Shown here: positions 4,164 through 39,614 of the stretch, piece after piece
Layout of the letters: every line of letters starts with the position of its first letter
Position numbering within the stretch: position 1 is the first letter of the stretch
IMG/VR virus record: IMGVR_UViG_3300045988_119069
DNA from: a virus
Reading direction: 5' to 3' (one strand)
Length of the DNA: 64,000 bases
Program-made: the position numbers and the translations under genes
Notes under the pieces: generated by a model
What the model was told of the DNA's origin: nothing
The model's input: the letters and a program-made list of their open reading frames with translations, nothing else
The model's database searches: none

Positions 4164-4970
4164 TTATTCCGCGTCATCCGTTGGCTCGGAATTATTTGTC
4201 AATTTGCTTTCTTTCATGTACCCGTGTCTAATCACATCCTCCTCGTCCTTCTCCTCCATATACTCGAAGTAGTCCGGCTCTTCCGGCTTCTCCCCACTCA
4301 GCAGTTCCTCGTCTTCTATCTCCTGCAGGTCCTTGGTAGTAAGACCATACTTGCGAGCCATGCGTAGCTTCTCCTCCTCGGTGTAGTTGATGCGGTCGCG
4401 CTTCACGATGCTCACGTCCTGCGTGATGGCAATGTGGCTCATGTCCGGCATCTCGTCCGTAGCATCGCGCTCCTCCTGGAAGTTGCCATACACATTAGCT
4501 AAGGCTTCCATGCCCTTCGCCACAGCACGGTCGTTGTTCTGTTGCTTGCCTGTGCGGATAAGCCATTCTGCCGAGCTGAGGAACATGGCTTTATGACGCG
4601 GACTGTCATCCGTCTGGAAGAAACTTATAAGATGGTTGCATACTGTCACGTCGTTGTTAATTTCCGTGACAGTACGCGGACGGATATTCCCCTCGTCGTC
4701 GAGCGAAATCTTCAGAGCAAGCATTAATGCCTGAGCCTCTTCGTTGCCTTGGGCGGCTTGATTGAAGAATATCTCATAGTCACGCCGGGCAATATTGCGG
4801 CACACGGTGTGAGGGTCAATATCCTTGTTATGCTCCCACCGTTTGTAAAATTCAAAGCACACCTGCATACGGTAGCGTTGCTCCAGCTTGGGAAACGCCT
4901 TCTCAATGGATGTGCCGTAGCTCAACCACTTGTCTATACGGGCGAGCGTGTTTTGCGTAAGTCCTGACAT
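4164..4970 (-). CDS. hypothetical protein with an acidic C-terminus (first gene of the leftward operon)
   Basis: 268-aa ORF. A role as small terminase subunit is possible from position only and is not supported by motifs. Confidence 0.5.
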   Translation of the reverse strand: MSGLTQNTLARIDKWLSYGTSIEKAFPKLEQRYRMQVCFEFYKRWEHNKDIDPHTVCRNIARRDYEIFFNQAAQGNEEAQALMLALKISLDDEGNIRPRTVTEINNDVTVCNHLISFFQTDDSPRHKAMFLSSAEWLIRTGKQQNNDRAVAKGMEALANVYGNFQEERDATDEMPDMSHIAITQDVSIVKRDRINYTEEEKLRMARKYGLTTKDLQEIEDEELLSGEKPEEPDYFEYMEEKDEEDVIRHGYMKESKLTNNSEPTDDAE

Positions 4971-32373: not shown

Positions 32374-32505
32374 ATGACTGACATTAAGATTTCCGTGCAT
32401 CCCGTTAGCCATCGGCTCGAATGGCGAGGATGGGGTGATTTCTCGCCCTCCCTTCGAGCCACCGACTACAAATGCCCACACTGTATAATGATTGAATATG
32501 ACTAA
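32374..32505 (+). CDS. TRD-like mini-ORF A (43 aa)
   Basis: MTDIKISVHPVSHRLEWRGWGDFSPSLRATDYKCPHCIMIEYD*. Below the track cutoff. SLRATDYK..IMIEYD resembles the distal TRD segment of C5-MTases. Confidence 0.55.
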   Translation: MTDIKISVHPVSHRLEWRGWGDFSPSLRATDYKCPHCIMIEYD

Positions 32506-32629
32506 TCTTGACTTCTACCAATATCCTCGTGGCAATAACGATGGAGGTAAATTAGACACTGACGTTTGCCCGACCGTGACAATCAACTCGTGGCAGCAAA
32601 ATGTATTTCTGATTGAAGAATATGAATAA
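32498..32629 (+). CDS. TRD-like mini-ORF B (43 aa)
   Basis: MTNLDFYQYPRGNNDGGKLDTDVCPTVTINSWQQNVFLIEEYE*. Its start lies inside the junction TATGACTAA of ORF A. Confidence 0.55.
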   Translation: MTNLDFYQYPRGNNDGGKLDTDVCPTVTINSWQQNVFLIEEYE

Positions 32630-32774
32630 CATCACAATAGACTACCACGCTCATGCTATATCGAGCATTTATTGGAATGTTTCGCCTGACTATAAAAGAC
32701 CTCCGTTAGTAGGTATTAATAGATGTGTCAAGACCGATACTCATGCTCCTGGAATTTTGATAGAATACAAATAA
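32622..32774 (+). CDS. TRD-like mini-ORF C (50 aa)
   Basis: MNNITIDYHAHAISSIYWNVSPDYKRPPLVGINRCVKTDTHAPGILIEYK*. Its start lies inside the junction TATGAATAA of ORF B. Confidence 0.5.
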   Translation: MNNITIDYHAHAISSIYWNVSPDYKRPPLVGINRCVKTDTHAPGILIEYK

Positions 32775-32784
32775 CAGCAACAAT

Positions 32785-34110
32785 ATGATCACAAAACTAA
32801 ATTTCACCGACCGCACCATCAAGAGCTATGCCATCCGCAAGCTCACACCCAAGGAGTGTTTTCGCTTGATGGGCGTTCGCGACAACGTAATCGGCACGAT
32901 GCAGAGCAGCAATGCTCAAGCAGCCGAACGTCTGCCCGACTGGAAGGGCAAGGGTAAACCCGAAGACATGGCTATATCTGCCTCACAGCAGTACAAGCAA
33001 GCTGGAAACAGTATTTGTATAGATGTGTTAGCATATCTATATCAAAATCTTTTCTACCCCGCTCCACCCAAGCCTCGCCCCGGCAAGCAGCTCACTCTCT
33101 TCGACGCCCCCGAAGATACCCTGCCCGCCCTGCCGCCCACCGCCGACAAGAACGAAGAGAAGATATTCCTCACCACGTTCTCCGGCTACGACTCGCAGCT
33201 CATGGCAGCCGACGTGCTACGCGAGTGGCATCCCGACTTTCGATGGACATGCGTAGGATGGAGCGACATCGACAAATACGCCTGTCAGATGCACAACCTC
33301 GTCTTCCCTCAGTTTGCCGACTGCGCCCTGGGCGACATCACCAAGATTGACTGGCACGAGGTGGAAAGCTCGCTCGAAGGCCGCGAAGTGGACCTCTTCA
33401 CCTATTCCTCGCCTTGCCAGGACATCAGTCAGGCGGGCAAGCAAATGGGCTTGCAGGAGGGCAGCGACACCCGAAGCGCACTGCTTTGGCGTGTGGCGGA
33501 TGCCGTGGAGGTGCTTCGCCCGAAGTATCTCTTGCAGGAGAACGTGGCGGCACTGGTAAGCCAGAAGTTCTTGCCAGACTTTCAGAAGTGGCTCGACAAA
33601 CTCTCGTCGCTCGGCTATGTGAGCCGTTGGACGCGACTCAACGCCAAGAACTACGGTGTGCCCCAAAACCGCGACCGTGTGTTCTGCCTCTCCATGCGCC
33701 GAGACGTAGCCTTCGACTATCAGTTTCCCGAACCCTTCGAGCTGCTTACCCGATTGGAAGACGTGCTCGAAGAGGAAGTGTCCGACCGCTATTTCCTCAA
33801 GGACGATGCCGTGAGCAAGTTCCTCAAGGCAAACGACTCTGACAATGCCTTATTCCTTCAATTCGACCTGCCACCGACACATGAGGCGGCAATGTTCCTC
33901 AAGACCGTGCTTCAGATATTCATGGAGCGTCACGACGGATGGGACAAGGGCATTGAGTGGAACGAGAAAGAACTGAGCTATCATCGCCCAGCCATCGCCC
34001 ATCTCTACGAAAAGTTCAAGGAGAACCCAAAGAAACTGGACGTGGAATATTGGCGCGGTTTTTATGGAATGTTTAAGGAGAATATGGAGAGGAAGAAGGA
34101 TGAAAAATAA
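32785..34110 (+). CDS. circularly permuted DNA (cytosine-5)-methyltransferase catalytic core lacking an obvious TRD
   Basis: Motif order: IX RKLTPKECFRLMG, X QYKQAGNSICIDV, Pro-rich linker, I TTFSGYDSQ, IV YSSPCQDISQAG, VI LLQENV, VIII VPQNRDRVF. Confidence 0.85.
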   Translation: MITKLNFTDRTIKSYAIRKLTPKECFRLMGVRDNVIGTMQSSNAQAAERLPDWKGKGKPEDMAISASQQYKQAGNSICIDVLAYLYQNLFYPAPPKPRPGKQLTLFDAPEDTLPALPPTADKNEEKIFLTTFSGYDSQLMAADVLREWHPDFRWTCVGWSDIDKYACQMHNLVFPQFADCALGDITKIDWHEVESSLEGREVDLFTYSSPCQDISQAGKQMGLQEGSDTRSALLWRVADAVEVLRPKYLLQENVAALVSQKFLPDFQKWLDKLSSLGYVSRWTRLNAKNYGVPQNRDRVFCLSMRRDVAFDYQFPEPFELLTRLEDVLEEEVSDRYFLKDDAVSKFLKANDSDNALFLQFDLPPTHEAAMFLKTVLQIFMERHDGWDKGIEWNEKELSYHRPAIAHLYEKFKENPKKLDVEYWRGFYGMFKENMERKKDEK

Positions 34111-34246
34111 ACCGTTTCATGCTATTCAAAATGGGGGGGGTACGATTGCACCTGCAATCACCTCCCACTATTTCAAAGCCGGTGTGCGAGATTTCTTGTT
34201 TGCGCTCGCCATACCGCATTGCTGTTTAATAGTAGAATATGATTGA
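34100..34246 (+). CDS. TRD-like mini-ORF D (48 aa) containing a G8 tract
   Basis: MKNKPFHAIQNGGGTIAPAITSHYFKAGVRDFLFALAIPHCCLIVEYD*. The start overlaps the core stop region (GATGAAAAATAA). G8 at 34133-34140. Confidence 0.55.
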   Translation: MKNKPFHAIQNGGGTIAPAITSHYFKAGVRDFLFALAIPHCCLIVEYD

Positions 34247-34376
34247 AAAGATTGGCAACATTTATTACGACAAGTGGAAGTCCGGTTTTGATGGCAACAT
34301 CTGCGGCACTAAAGGAATATACCCCACCCTAACCTTGTCAACACAAACGGGGGAAGTACTGATTGAATATGCTTAG
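34239..34376 (+). CDS. TRD-like mini-ORF E (45 aa)
   Basis: MIEKIGNIYYDKWKSGFDGNICGTKGIYPTLTLSTQTGEVLIEYA*. Has the PTLT signature. Ends in TAG. Confidence 0.55.
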   Translation: MIEKIGNIYYDKWKSGFDGNICGTKGIYPTLTLSTQTGEVLIEYA

Positions 34377-34521
34377 CAACCCTCGTCCCCTCGTCCTCGG
34401 CTCCTACAGCCCCTCGCAGAACGGCATCATCGTGTCACCACACGGCATAGCCCTGTGCATAGTCGGGGGAGGTAAGGGTCACGACGTGGATAAACCGAAA
34501 ATATTGATAGAGTATGATTAA
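34369..34521 (+). CDS. TRD-like mini-ORF F (50 aa)
   Basis: MLSNPRPLVLGSYSPSQNGIIVSPHGIALCIVGGGKGHDVDKPKILIEYD*. Confidence 0.5.
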   Translation: MLSNPRPLVLGSYSPSQNGIIVSPHGIALCIVGGGKGHDVDKPKILIEYD

Positions 34522-34533
34522 AGACAATCTCCT

Positions 34534-34707
34534 ATGCTACACTTTCGCATAGCAGCCTTCCGAGGCCGTGACCCCGACAATCCGTCCGACCGCAAGCATC
34601 CCTCCAACGGACGCTTCTGTCAGCGAATGGAGATAAACTGGGGGAGTACAACCAACACTCTCACCTCAGTAGGCAAAGACAACATGGTATATCTGGAATA
34701 TGAATAG
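34534..34707 (+). CDS. TRD-like mini-ORF G (57 aa)
   Basis: MLHFRIAAFRGRDPDNPSDRKHPSNGRFCQRMEINWGSTTNTLTSVGKDNMVYLEYE*. Matches the RGR..NP.D....Q.LE....NTLT...KDN TRD pattern. Ends in TAG. Confidence 0.6.
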   Translation: MLHFRIAAFRGRDPDNPSDRKHPSNGRFCQRMEINWGSTTNTLTSVGKDNMVYLEYE

Positions 34708-34849
34708 ACAAATCTCTTTCGTGCAACGCACATCAAAGCTCTGCCCACGTCGGGGGTACTCCACGGCATTGTCCGCACGCTACGACGGATGGGCAGGACT
34801 CTACGACGAGCACGGACAGCACACCATTGTATTGATAGAATATGAATAG
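34700..34849 (+). CDS. TRD-like mini-ORF H (49 aa)
   Basis: MNRQISFVQRTSKLCPRRGYSTALSARYDGWAGLYDEHGQHTIVLIEYE*. Ends in TAG. Confidence 0.5.
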   Translation: MNRQISFVQRTSKLCPRRGYSTALSARYDGWAGLYDEHGQHTIVLIEYE

Positions 34850-34982
34850 GCATACACTAAATTGTCCGTCCGGCATCTGCTGCGTCCTGACATCCCATTA
34901 CGCAAGAGAAGGATGGGCGAATATGGCAAGCAATACAACATCACAATGCAAAGCACCTGCAGTATTGATAGAATATGAATAA
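34842..34982 (+). CDS. TRD-like mini-ORF I (46 aa)
   Basis: MNRHTLNCPSGICCVLTSHYAREGWANMASNTTSQCKAPAVLIEYE*. Confidence 0.5.
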   Translation: MNRHTLNCPSGICCVLTSHYAREGWANMASNTTSQCKAPAVLIEYE

Positions 34983-35002: not shown

Positions 35003-35812
35003 ATGAGTCAAAAAGAAACAAGAAGCATCCCTAAAACGGGAGCAAAAACTTTCGAGAATGAGAAACTATCAGCCTTTCTCCACAGTCTGCCTAAAGGAGC
35101 TATGCTTTATTCGCCTTTGTTAGGCTACATGACGGTGTATGACATCAACGAATCGGGCGTTGTGATGGCCCTTCCTAATCCTGTCGAGAATGAACCATAC
35201 GATTGGCCTTTCCTTTACAACGGACGTATAGCGCGCTACGACAAAGGAGAGTGTATGCTGTTTCTCTCGCATCTTTACCGGAGTTGGAATGTGCTCAAAT
35301 TCCAGCTGGGTGACATCGTGGCAATGGACATCAAGTATAAAGATGGCAACATTCTGACCTACATTGTGATTTTCAGCGAAGTGGAATCTACTGATTATCC
35401 CAAGATAAGGACATACGCCTGCTTATGCAAAAACAGCGACGTGCTTACTTCTTACGCTCTGCTTGATCTTCGCGGTACACGCGAAGAAGAAGAAAGCATC
35501 GAACTGAGATACGCTACGCCTACGGAAGAAAAACTTCTCAATAATGCCGTGGAGAAAATCGGGAAAAGATGGGACAAGGTAAAGCAGCGTCTTGTGTCAT
35601 TAGATTCTGAAGCTCACACTCCCGAGCAGCTGCGCGAGGATTTCAACGCCTTACAGGAAGAATACTATCGCTTGTGTGAACATTGCAAGAAGTTAGAGAA
35701 TGAGCGTAACGATTTCCAAAAGAAAGCAGAGTTAGAGTCAGGTAGAATACAGGAAATATTATACAAGGCTATCGAACAAGTAGGGCAGAGTAAACTACAG
35801 ACCGATGACTGA
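35003..35812 (+). CDS. hypothetical protein with a C-terminal coiled coil
   Basis: 269 aa. Its stop overlaps the next mini-ORF start (ATGACTGA). Confidence 0.55.
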   Translation: MSQKETRSIPKTGAKTFENEKLSAFLHSLPKGAMLYSPLLGYMTVYDINESGVVMALPNPVENEPYDWPFLYNGRIARYDKGECMLFLSHLYRSWNVLKFQLGDIVAMDIKYKDGNILTYIVIFSEVESTDYPKIRTYACLCKNSDVLTSYALLDLRGTREEEESIELRYATPTEEKLLNNAVEKIGKRWDKVKQRLVSLDSEAHTPEQLREDFNALQEEYYRLCEHCKKLENERNDFQKKAELESGRIQEILYKAIEQVGQSKLQTDD

Positions 35813-35984
35813 CAAGTATTACATCGGATGGGTACGCAGCGGCAAGGACGGCAAGGACCTCGTAAAGAGCCGACCGCGCAAGCAGATAGCCAATACCGTG
35901 ACAACCTCACCGCCAGGCTGCTTTGCCGACCCTTGCGACGGGCTTGGCAACACCACACCGCATATAGTATATAAATTTGAATAA
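35805..35984 (+). CDS. TRD-like mini-ORF J (59 aa)
   Basis: MTDKYYIGWVRSGKDGKDLVKSRPRKQIANTVTTSPPGCFADPCDGLGNTTPHIVYKFE*. Confidence 0.5.
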   Translation: MTDKYYIGWVRSGKDGKDLVKSRPRKQIANTVTTSPPGCFADPCDGLGNTTPHIVYKFE

Positions 35985-37841: not shown

Positions 37842-38195
37842 ATGATACAGCATCAACACTGGGAAGACTCCACTCGCATACTCATTACCGACGAGCAGCA
37901 TCAAGGCAGCATACAGGCGTTCATTCCTAATCGTGCCGAAGACAGACCTTTGGATGGCGAAGCGGATGCTCTCATCTACTCGCTGTGGGTGGACGAAGTT
38001 CACCGCGGTCGTGAGGTGGCAAAGCACCTGATGGAGACAGTAGAAAAAGAGCTGAAGTATTACGGCGTAGAGACCGTCGCAATTTCGTGGGACGGACGCG
38101 ACTCTCCTCAGTGGGTGTTGCATTGGTACGAAAAGCTGGGTTACGAGGGGAAGGCGTTAGGCAATCAATGCTGCACGCTTCTCAAACGGCTGTGA
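37842..38195 (+). CDS. GNAT-family N-acetyltransferase (small)
   Basis: LWVDEVHRGREVAKHLMETVEKELKYYGVETV fits the acetyl-CoA-binding motif A region. Confidence 0.55.
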   Translation: MIQHQHWEDSTRILITDEQHQGSIQAFIPNRAEDRPLDGEADALIYSLWVDEVHRGREVAKHLMETVEKELKYYGVETVAISWDGRDSPQWVLHWYEKLGYEGKALGNQCCTLLKRL

Positions 38196-38438: not shown

Positions 38439-39614
38439 ATGAGTGACTTAAAGATTTTTGCAAAGACCATCGAACCTGAAGTCCAGGAGCAAGTAAGAAA
38501 GATGGCAGAGAGCGAGGCTTACCGCGACTGTAAGATTCGTATTATGCCCGATTGTCATGCCGGAAAGGGATGCACCGTAGGCACCGTGATTGAAACCCGT
38601 GGCAAGGTGGTGCCCAACACAGTAGGTGTGGATATAGGCTGTGGTATGTTGGTATTCAAGTTCGCTGAGAAGGATATTAACCTTTCGCTTCTCGACCGAA
38701 TCATCAATGAGTCGGTGCCGAGCGGATTTGACGTTCACGAAAAGTCCAAGCTAAAAGTTATGAGTCCGCTTACGTCACATCTTTTGCTCGATTTGCACGA
38801 AAGGACACAAGGTTGCTTCGACCCCGACTATATCGGACGCTCGCTTGGCACCCTCGGTGGCGGCAATCACTTCATCGAGCTTGACGAGGACGAGCAGGGC
38901 TGTAAGTATCTTGTGATACATTCGGGCAGTCGCAATCTCGGAGTTAAGGTGTGCAATTTTTTCCAACACTTAGCCAAGAAGAATGTGAATCGTAGTGAGG
39001 AGCGCAAGCGCATCATCGAAGACTTGAAGAAGTACGGCTTAGAGAGGGAGATTAACAATGCGTTGCGTCGTTTGGGCACCGTGCCTCCCGATCTCGCCTA
39101 TCTTGAGGGAGAAGACCTCGATGCCTATAATTTCGCAGCGAACGTCTGTCAGTGTTTTGCCGACGACAACAGATGGGATATAGCAATGACTATAATCCAT
39201 GGGCTTCAATTATCGTTCGTGGATTTCTTTACCACCAGGCATAACTATTTCGACATACACTCAGGCATCATCCGAAAAGGAGCCGTGTGTGCCGAAAATG
39301 GCGAACAGCTTATCATCCCACTTAATATGCGCGACGGTTCGTTGATCTGTCGCGGCAAGGGCAACGACGACTGGCTTCAGTCAGCTCCGCATGGTGCTGG
39401 CAGACTGATGTCGCGCTCGGCGGCAAAGAAGCAGCTCAGCATGGAGGAATACCGCCAGCAAATGCACGACATCTACTCCACATCGGTATGCGAGTCCACC
39501 ATAGACGAAGCACCAATGGCGTATAAGTCGGCAGAGGAGATAGAAGAACTGATAGGCGACACTGTGGATGTGGTGAAGCGCATCAAGCCGATATATAACT
39601 TTAAGGCAAAGTAA
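38439..39614 (+). CDS. rtcB: RtcB-type RNA 3'-phosphate ligase
   Basis: MPDCHAGKG, VGVDIGCGM, GGGNHFIELD, IHSGSRNLG and SAPHGAGR motifs. Confidence 0.9.
   Translation: MSDLKIFAKTIEPEVQEQVRKMAESEAYRDCKIRIMPDCHAGKGCTVGTVIETRGKVVPNTVGVDIGCGMLVFKFAEKDINLSLLDRIINESVPSGFDVHEKSKLKVMSPLTSHLLLDLHERTQGCFDPDYIGRSLGTLGGGNHFIELDEDEQGCKYLVIHSGSRNLGVKVCNFFQHLAKKNVNRSEERKRIIEDLKKYGLEREINNALRRLGTVPPDLAYLEGEDLDAYNFAANVCQCFADDNRWDIAMTIIHGLQLSFVDFFTTRHNYFDIHSGIIRKGAVCAENGEQLIIPLNMRDGSLICRGKGNDDWLQSAPHGAGRLMSRSAAKKQLSMEEYRQQMHDIYSTSVCESTIDEAPMAYKSAEEIEELIGDTVDVVKRIKPIYNFKAK

Follow-up and report, generated by a model that had tools for sequence, protein, structure and literature searches.

The closest described counterparts of the locus reported here, a cytosine methylase gene with 11 accompanying minigenes in a 64,000-nucleotide stretch of the virus record IMGVR_UViG_3300045988_119069 (the whole stretch is called the window), are the multispecific C5-cytosine DNA methyltransferases (C5-methyltransferases) of the Bacillus phages SPR, phi3T, rho11s and H2 and their uncultured relatives (Dulem virus 39, P0151, L100, L129 and L134). 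In these, one core serves several modular target-recognition domains (TRDs) of ~40–50 amino acids, and in the window one core is accompanied by 11 TRD-like genes; each TRD of the multispecific enzymes gives a different target, and the enzymes are encoded by phages for anti-restriction. Their tandem TRDs work independently of position. The catalytic part of the window core is 39–55% identical to the multispecific enzymes, the products of three minigenes (T1, T2 and T7) are 44–64% identical to individual TRDs of theirs, and those TRDs also end in a hydrophobic strand followed by Glu. The arrangement of the parts differs, however: the multispecific enzymes have the canonical motif order, with all TRDs in one chain between motifs VIII and IX, whereas the window has a permuted core and separate TRD genes.

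Permutation and splitting have each been described in other C5-methyltransferases. The naturally permuted 'Type H' enzymes include M.BssHII, M.Alw26I, M2.Eco31IC, M.Esp3I, M2.BsaI and 22 REBASE entries (PMC5944983). They carry motifs IX and X ahead of I–VIII, with the break in the variable region (PMC5944983); by alignment to M.HhaI and M.MpeI, the window core has both features. The exact Type H order, TRD-IX-X-I..VIII, is found in the relatives P0132, P0159, P0220 and P0140. In the known Type H enzymes, each of them monospecific and paired with a restriction enzyme, the chain opens with its own TRD, whereas the window core starts after the TRD. Active enzymes formed from separate polypeptides include M.AquI (alpha and beta) and M.EcoHK31I (PMC5944983), and AquI-like pairs of open reading frames (ORFs) are present in L158, L160, L174 and the phage Javan179. 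The M.AquI split is unlike that of the window, where IX–X and I–VIII are fused, the cut lies between TRD and IX, the TRD is the only piece detached, and there are up to 11 putative alternative partners. By analogy only, the proposed logic resembles that of Type I and certain Type IIB systems with S subunits (HsdS and BsaXI S), in which a constant methylase chassis is joined to a separate, exchangeable and highly variable specificity protein, but HsdS-type subunits have an unrelated fold and chemistry (N6-adenine, gamma-class) and are 400-amino-acid proteins with two TRDs, one per enzyme.

The window system thus departs from each of these in one defining feature: the TRDs in one chain, the N-terminal cis TRD, the M.AquI split point and the HsdS fold, respectively. 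The literature on split, permuted and multispecific C5-methyltransferases that we searched describes no free-standing TRDs, with REBASE and much of the subscription literature lying outside the search. We consider it likely that the locus encodes a multispecific anti-restriction C5-methylase whose exchangeable TRDs act in trans as subunits. The fuller proposal, that this is the first natural C5-methyltransferase with free, interchangeable TRD subunits of 45–60 residues that dock by a short C-terminal tag, and that many human-gut phages carry such systems, their hypervariable repertoires matched to the restriction systems of the host, seems to us somewhat more probable than its contrary.

A permuted core without an internal TRD

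The core gene occupies 32785..34110 on the + strand, starts with ATG and encodes 441 amino acids, exactly as given in an earlier note made from the DNA letters. Its parts are as follows, with motif positions given in core residues:

32785..33054, + strand: residues 1–90, an N-terminal strand (MITKLNFTDRTIKSYA) followed by motif IX (RKLTPKECFRLMG, residues 18–30) and motif X (QYKQAGNSICIDV, residues 69–81), supported by alignment to M.HhaI 271–318
33055..33165, + strand: residues 91–127, a proline-rich linker with GKQLTLFDAPED; canonical relatives end ...QLxLF
33166..33807, + strand: residues 128–341, with motif I for S-adenosylmethionine (AdoMet) binding (TTFSGYDSQ, residues 130–138), motif IV with the catalytic Cys (SSPCQDIS, residues 208–215, containing PCQ), motif VI (QENV, residues 251–254, containing ENV), motif VIII (QNRDRVF, residues 294–300, containing QNRDR) and the post-VIII helix (LEDVLEEEVSDRYFLKDD, residues 324–341), corresponding to PF00145 23–218
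33808..34110, + strand: residues 342–441 and the stop codon, a C-terminal tail read as non-TRD from the tail profile search

The set of C5-methyltransferase motifs in the core is complete (FSGYDSQ, SPCQD, QENV, QNRDR, RKLTPKEC and AGNSI), and every motif listed in the earlier note (IX, X, I, IV, VI, VIII and the post-VIII segment) was located in the ORF. Against Pfam, the core matched PF00145 (E = 3e-48) in two stretches, the main one aligning profile positions 23–218 of 324 to residues 155–352. A phmmer comparison with the PDB aligned residues 156–331 to M.HhaI 35–199, residues 17–34 to M.HhaI 271–288 and residues 65–89 to M.HhaI 294–318; the catalytic part also aligned to M.MpeI 117–277. Because these are alignments to solved enzymes and go beyond motifs picked out by eye, they confirm the circular permutation (IX-X-linker-I-IV-VI-VIII) that the note had proposed.

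The ...QLxLF ending of canonical C-termini, together with GKQLTLFDAPED in the linker, suggests that the linker joins an old C-terminus to an old N-terminus. Such a chain would fit the classical origin of permuted enzymes by duplication or fusion of adjacent genes, and the tandem canonical methylase genes Blue_147 and Blue_146 of Bacillus phage Deep Blue illustrate the sort of starting material this would take. Deep Blue-type Bacillus phages were themselves rejected as 'permuted' relatives, as their collinear matches come from these two adjacent canonical genes. Base composition sets the catalytic part of the core apart: its G+C content is 55–60% (window 32950–33850) compared with 38–46% in flanking genes and upstream minigenes, a compositional island that points to a separate origin or history of the core.

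No TRD could be recognized in this chain. The PF00145 match ends at profile position 218 of 324 (core residue 352), leaving profile positions ~219–290 unmatched, and the core has no TRD between motifs VIII and IX of the same polypeptide. Nor is there one at the N-terminus, as in the Type H group: motif IX begins at residue 18 with only 17 residues ahead of it, and therefore no space for an N-terminal TRD, and 119 of 120 close homologues begin at the same MITK. In the Type H topology the N-terminus, rather than the C-terminal tail, is where a TRD would be expected, a refinement of the earlier note, which had looked for it in the tail. When the tail was aligned with its homologues and searched as a profile, only the C-termini of close family members matched; the profile found no match among 408 minigene products (best E = 3.2 with filters off) or in the variable regions of 221 canonical and permuted methyltransferases, and a Pfam scan of the tail returned nothing significant. 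A complete TRD in the C-terminal segment, named beforehand as the finding that would speak against a TRD-less core, was thus not seen in the tail profile comparison. The note's description of ~110 residues after the post-VIII segment with no TRD signature held for the absence of a TRD, although the length is 100 residues. Several alternative versions of the tail occur among cores otherwise 85–95% identical, a variability that is unlike a specificity domain tied to conserved targets and would suit an accessory region. Taken from these comparisons, the C-terminal 100 amino acids appear to be a lineage-specific variable tail and not a TRD.

Minigene products and the TRD of canonical enzymes

The minigenes around the core are listed below with the sequence match for each product; the comparison set consisted of representatives and locus-encoded methyltransferases.

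32374..32505, + strand: T1, 43 amino acids (...SPSLRATDYKCPHCIMIEYD), 52–64% identical to the VIII–IX variable region of L100 (amino acids 319–358) and P0150 (amino acids 337–369)
32498..32629, + strand: T2, 43 amino acids (...CPTVTINSWQQNVFLIEEYE), with 46 matches in canonical variable regions, for example P0141 amino acids 238–284
32622..32774, + strand: T3, 50 amino acids (...GILIEYK), adjoining the core upstream and matching P0192 amino acids 226–254, between motifs IV and IX
34100..34246, + strand: T4, 48 amino acids (...IAPAITSHYFKAG...CCLIVEYD), whose ATG overlaps the core ORF end; clusters with T9
34239..34376, + strand: T5, 45 amino acids (...GIYPTLTLSTQTGEVLIEYA), matching P0263 amino acids 300–335 and aligning to the M.MpeI TRD (GIGPTLTASGANSRIKIET) in a de-permuted construct
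34369..34521, + strand: T6, 50 amino acids (...GIALCIVGGGKGHDVDKPKILIEYD), matching the variable regions of P0158 and P0205
34514..34552, + strand: 12-codon remnant (MIKDNLLCYTFA) of a deleted minigene between T6 and T7, matching the C-terminus (...TVTKDNLLCVTFI) of a 60-amino-acid minigene
34534..34707, + strand: T7, 57 amino acids (...RGRDPDNPSDR...NTLTSVGKDNMVYLEYE), with 17 matches in canonical variable regions
34700..34849, + strand: T8, 49 amino acids (...STALSARYDGW...IVLIEYE), assigned by a TLxARY-like motif and gene position only
34842..34982, + strand: T9, 46 amino acids (...CCVLTSHYAREGW...AVLIEYE), matching P0244 amino acids 302–330, inside the variable region
35805..35984, + strand: T10, 59 amino acids, dispersed (...IANTVTTS...TPHIVYKFE), matching the N-terminal TRD (amino acids 7–53) of the permuted P0175
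37224..37388, + strand: T11, 54 amino acids, dispersed (...RVYSARDLCPACLVPTGGNQEIKVLVEL), matching the variable regions of P0139, P0258 and P0244

For nine of the 11 products a match was obtained, either in the VIII–IX variable region of a canonical methyltransferase or, in a permuted enzyme, in the N-terminal TRD. This bears out the earlier suggestion that TRDs reside on separate minigenes. T7 is 57–60% identical to methylases of Streptococcus prophages and to an internal TRD (amino acids 357–401 of 527) in the multispecific methylase, of canonical order, from Dulem virus 39. Homologues of T8, searched for in a collection of 5.8 billion proteins, fall into 72 database clusters, all of them free-standing proteins of 44–75 amino acids without Pfam domains and called 'hypothetical protein' where named. 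No PHROGs family was found for the products of T1–T10 (ten tested).

The minigenes share a common design at their ends. The products of T1–T9 (43–57 amino acids) each finish in hydrophobic-hydrophobic-(I/V)-E-Y-(D/E/A/K)-stop, a C-terminal tag whose coding sequence, ...GAA-TAT-GAx-TAx, mostly contains the ATG of the next gene; the stop of T1, for example, overlaps the ATG of T2. A 10-nucleotide spacer separates the stop of T3 from the core ATG, and T10 and T11 lie further downstream among unrelated genes. Each TRD minigene is closed by its own stop and the frames vary, so the locus does not encode tandem TRDs in one polypeptide. Stop-to-stop segments with a terminal hydrophobic-E-[YF]-x number nine on the + strand beside the core and zero elsewhere in the 64 kb on both strands, and because the motif is confined in this way, the minigenes are not a product of chance. 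An alternative genetic code was ruled out, as ORFs of 2029, 1420 and 944 amino acids are intact under table 11.

To place the minigene products relative to a canonical enzyme, we assembled de-permuted constructs consisting of core residues 119–352, a minigene product and core residues 1–90. Without a minigene product the construct scored 167.3 bits and matched Pfam in two stretches. With each of T1–T9 inserted, the match became a single stretch over profile positions 23–321 of 324 with scores of 167.2–175.5 bits; eight of the nine constructs reached at least 172 bits, and the T6 construct scored 167.2. More informative than the gain in Pfam score is the alignment of the T5 construct, which is collinear with M.MpeI (4dkj) and M.HhaI through the TRD. 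On M.MpeI, '...GTKGIYPTLTLSTQTGEVLIEY' aligns over '...NINGIGPTLTASGANSRIKIET' and 'YAIRKLTPKECF' over 'QGVRYLTPLECF'. The C-terminal tag of the minigene therefore corresponds to the last beta-strand of the canonical TRD, which normally runs into motif IX, and the core begins just past that strand with 14 extra residues (MITKLNFTDRTIKS).

Conservation, turnover and relatives of the locus

Cores of this type are common in gut metagenomes, where more than 120 clusters at 90% identity or above were found, almost all of 439–442 amino acids and on contigs up to ~109 kb; the names given by their sources go no further than cytosine methyltransferase, assigned to Prevotella sp., Caudoviricetes or Bacteriophage sp. 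Blastn of the locus against GenBank phages gave no match, and tblastn with the core gave no record covering at least 80% of it. A scan of bacterial genomes returned only metagenome bins with inconsistent taxon labels, of which the two closest (95% and 84%) were labeled Prevotella. This points tentatively to Prevotella as host of the gut phage.

For a closer view of the locus we compared 80 IMG/VR contigs with cores 69–94% identical. Tag-bearing minigenes lie on the core strand in all 80 loci (491 on the + strand versus 5 on the − strand), with 1–11 minigenes per locus (median of 5) and one core each. The minigenes form about 14–16 sequence families, none of them universal; the T6 family is the most frequent (56 of 80 loci), and those of T2 and T10 are found in 45 and 28 loci, respectively. 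The C-terminal IEY(D/E) is common to TRD families that are otherwise unrelated. On the side of the core, the first 22 residues are almost invariant, even between cores that are 70% identical overall. These two conserved ends are the candidate interface between peptide and core. Within 11 minigene families, the ratio of nonsynonymous to synonymous polymorphism (pN/pS) was 0.14–0.41, and the minigenes are therefore maintained as proteins.

This conservation makes it highly improbable that the locus is a pseudogene left by decay of a multispecific methyltransferase. Frameshifted or truncated cores do occur in a few contigs (L031, L033, L041, L064 and L067), but all 80 related contigs share the architecture, as do hundreds of metagenomic clusters whose cores have the full length of 439–442 amino acids, the minigenes are under purifying selection and the stop–start overlaps are precise.

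The content of the array, by comparison, is highly variable, with 69 distinct ordered repertoires in the 80 loci. Loss of a cassette is directly shown by the remnant at 34514–34552, whose position is occupied by the intact 60-amino-acid minigene (...TVTKDNLLCVTFI) in L158 and L160. We therefore weighed whether the minigenes could be silent cassettes moved by recombination or gene conversion into one expressed site, as in pilS/pilE-type systems. The near-identical junctions of 12–18 nucleotides at every cassette end, the 69 arrangements, the deletion remnant and the existence of fused relatives with a cis TRD are all in line with this idea, and junction recombination probably does drive the turnover of repertoires. 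As an account of how the TRDs are used it is nonetheless very unlikely: no genome of this lineage has a TRD in frame with the core and hence an expression site, the cassettes are all intact ORFs that begin with an ATG of their own, the uniform orientation means that recombination would delete rather than switch, and purifying selection is unexpected for copies that are rarely expressed.

To set the window core among its homologues, we searched 1.84 billion representatives with HMMER and obtained 27,861 matches at E ≤ 0.001, mostly canonical and many of them long multi-TRD proteins. At least 14 of the best 150 are permuted clusters. P0132 has two TRDs followed by IX-X-I..VIII, and P0159, P0220 and P0140 have a cis N-terminal TRD joined to a core of the MIAQIN... 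type ('...TI(K/T)(A/T)RID...YFISLE-HNKDRKEQT-MIAQINVKTKEVRLFDIRKLS...'). In contrast to these fused forms, P0147, P0156 and P0230 are cores that lack a TRD, their first residue falling precisely at the equivalent site (MIAQIN... or MIARI...); no related loci were found for P0230. Judged from this series, the window core is a Type H enzyme with its TRD apparently detached and multiplied. Beyond the close relatives, no fewer than three or four phage lineages at a greater distance show the arrangement as well.

Among the relatives of P0159 is L083, in which 4–5 upstream minigenes ending in IEYE precede a MIAQIN core. At L083 4140–4205, the last TRD and this core are one base out of frame across a C7 homopolymer, whereas the two are fused in P0159, P0220 and P0140; the offset may reflect phase variation, a site of frameshifting or an error in the sequence.

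These observations bear on a further alternative, in which recoding (+1 frameshifting, stop readthrough or bypass) at the ...GAATATGAxTAx junctions would yield a covalent TRD–core or poly-TRD protein. Each successive window gene is shifted +1 by its overlapping ATG, the core frame is open for 7 codons upstream of the ATG, and ribosomes shifting by +1 where T3 ends would make ...ILIE-NTNNSNN-MITKLNF, resembling the 9-amino-acid linker of the fused relatives; the one-frame offset across the C7 run of L083 is of the same kind. However, the offset between upstream minigene and core varies among the 80 loci (+1, +2 or in frame with a TAA in between), with spacers of 2–23 nucleotides, and this variability of frame and spacing led us to reject programmed frameshifting or readthrough as a general mechanism. 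In addition, the +1 frame has stops just upstream of each overlapping ATG, the junctions lack a slippery motif, eight of the 11 minigenes are downstream of the core, where local recoding cannot fuse them to its N-terminus, and the MITK start is shared by nearly all close homologues (the 119 of 120 noted above). Recoding in any form is accordingly a poor candidate, and we regard it as very improbable.

Other relatives are divided still further. In L158 (3950–4360) and L160 (~4450–4960), the IX–X part (~127 amino acids, MITKLNFTDRT...) and the I–VIII part are separate ORFs, split at the linker. An ORF between the halves in L160 looks by eye like an HNH-type endonuclease, and the split there may have been caused by a mobile endonuclease. 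L085 (4900–6250) has an I–VIII ORF followed by at least eight minigenes that end in (V/I)(Y/I)ET-x instead of IEY(D/E), and the contig ends before an IX–X partner. On the 248-kb jumbo-phage contig L174 (2500–6150), one I–VIII ORF is accompanied by two alternative TRD-IX-X ORFs (177 and 113 amino acids), an IX–X-only ORF (72 amino acids) and a 127-amino-acid ORF with two TRD-like segments; this locus is a different way to a modular C5 methylase. Taken together, the arrangements in L083, L085, L158, L160 and L174 indicate that separately translated pieces are a recurrent habit of this branch of phage C5-methyltransferases.

Two additional homologues deserve description. Streptococcus phage Javan179 (L081; MK448694.1 12603–13881), a prophage whose host is cultured, has an AquI-like split, with a 263-amino-acid 'methylation subunit' (I–VIII) upstream of a 128-amino-acid 'DNA-cytosine methyltransferase' that carries a T7-like TRD and, as presumed from its size and annotated name, IX–X. 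P0142, a 464-amino-acid homologue, has a ~210-amino-acid insertion directly before the CQDIS of motif IV (...VIVHN|CQDISQAGKQ...). The insertion breaks up the catalytic Pro-Cys motif and has the look of an intein that includes a homing-endonuclease domain.

Downstream of the array, 1 kb past the last TRD minigene, the window encodes an RtcB-type RNA ligase (38439–39614, + strand; PHROG 1075, E = 2e-124). Phage RtcB is normally explained by tRNA repair, and the window gene is probably a tRNA-repair counter-defence. We found no link between it and the methylase array, and nothing in support of RtcB-dependent mRNA splicing of cassettes to the core, which we had considered. Near T11, a 117-amino-acid ORF (37842–38195, + strand) resembles a GNAT-type acetyltransferase by eye (...LWVDEVHRGREVAKHLM...).

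Proposed assembly and its implications

Eleven TRD-like genes accompany one core in the window, and we propose that they serve it as follows. A Type H enzyme would have lost its N-terminal TRD, leaving a 441-amino-acid chassis that supplies the AdoMet-binding and catalytic domain together with motifs IX and X. Each minigene of 43–59 amino acids would represent one TRD, translated as a separate peptide; initiation is proposed to be mostly coupled, because the next ATG lies inside the ...GAA-TAT-GAx-stop end of the preceding gene. The peptide would probably dock non-covalently on the core. Its (L/I)IEY(D/E) strand, the putative equivalent of the last canonical TRD beta-strand (for example, 'RIKIE' in M.MpeI), would pair with the strand or hairpin (MITKLNFTDRTIKSYAIRKLTP) that forms the invariant N-terminus of the core and runs into motif IX, completing the small DNA-recognition domain. 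Different peptides would then give holoenzymes with different targets, and the DNA of the gut (probably Prevotella) phage would be protected against many host restriction systems, a role that we infer by analogy with the multispecific enzymes of Bacillus phages. The repertoire would evolve as entire cassettes are acquired or lost at the conserved junctions.

Assembly from parts has precedents in this enzyme family: complementation between C5-methyltransferase fragments occurs in nature (M.AquI) and has been engineered, and permutation leaves the enzymes active (PMC5944983). Several results nevertheless weigh against free TRD subunits. A fragment pair of M.MpeI/M.SssI close to [X-I..VIII] + [TRD-IX] did not complement (PMC5944983), and a free 45-amino-acid TRD is therefore not a proven viable design. 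The gain in bits on inserting a TRD into the de-permuted core was small, at most 8 bits and nothing for T6, and we attribute the modest gain to the weakness of the Pfam profile in the variable region. AlphaFold2 predictions of the core and of a T5–core fusion were unusable (mean predicted local distance difference test scores, pLDDT, of 31.6 and 36.2) because the alignments were shallow, with only homologues at least 88% identical. T4 and T8 had no direct match to a canonical TRD in the comparison set, and T10 and T11 end differently from the other minigenes (IVYKFE and VLVEL). The logo of the C-terminal tag is partly circular, since the search for minigenes itself relied on E and Y/F at positions −3 and −2. 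Finally, a cis TRD coexists with free minigenes in lineage B, where docking would need competition.

The same data were also considered with the core as an enzyme active alone, for example relaxed or non-specific, and the peptides as decoys, as inhibitors of host methyltransferases or restriction enzymes, or as regulators. Abundance and variability, which the peptides show, are frequent traits of anti-defence genes. In C5-methyltransferases, however, one half of the cleft that binds DNA is made by the TRD, which also touches the flipped-out target, as seen in the structures of M.HhaI and M.HaeIII, and productive DNA binding would not be expected of an enzyme that lacks a TRD. The peptides are also always linked to exactly this type of core, unrelated families share the terminal tag, and the fused relatives carry a TRD immediately ahead of the same N-terminal strand. 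On balance we think it unlikely that the core works alone.

C5-methyltransferases are the textbook single-chain DNA methylases, whose specificity is part of the chain itself, and a constant permuted chassis served by specificity peptides of ~50 residues would be new. If TRDs do act in trans, this would be a new quaternary design for the enzymology of the family and would define a minimal autonomous TRD, which the work on Bacillus phages mapped only genetically. It would provide a function for minigenes now labeled 'hypothetical', which number in the thousands and belong to no Pfam or PHROG family, and a compact scaffold for programmable or multiplexed writing of 5-methylcytosine (m5C). It would also predict that the number of m5C motifs in a phage tracks the number of its minigenes. 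For phage biology, it would account for the ability of abundant gut phages to match the great diversity of restriction systems in Bacteroidota, since they could swap cassettes of 150 nucleotides and would not need to acquire whole genes.

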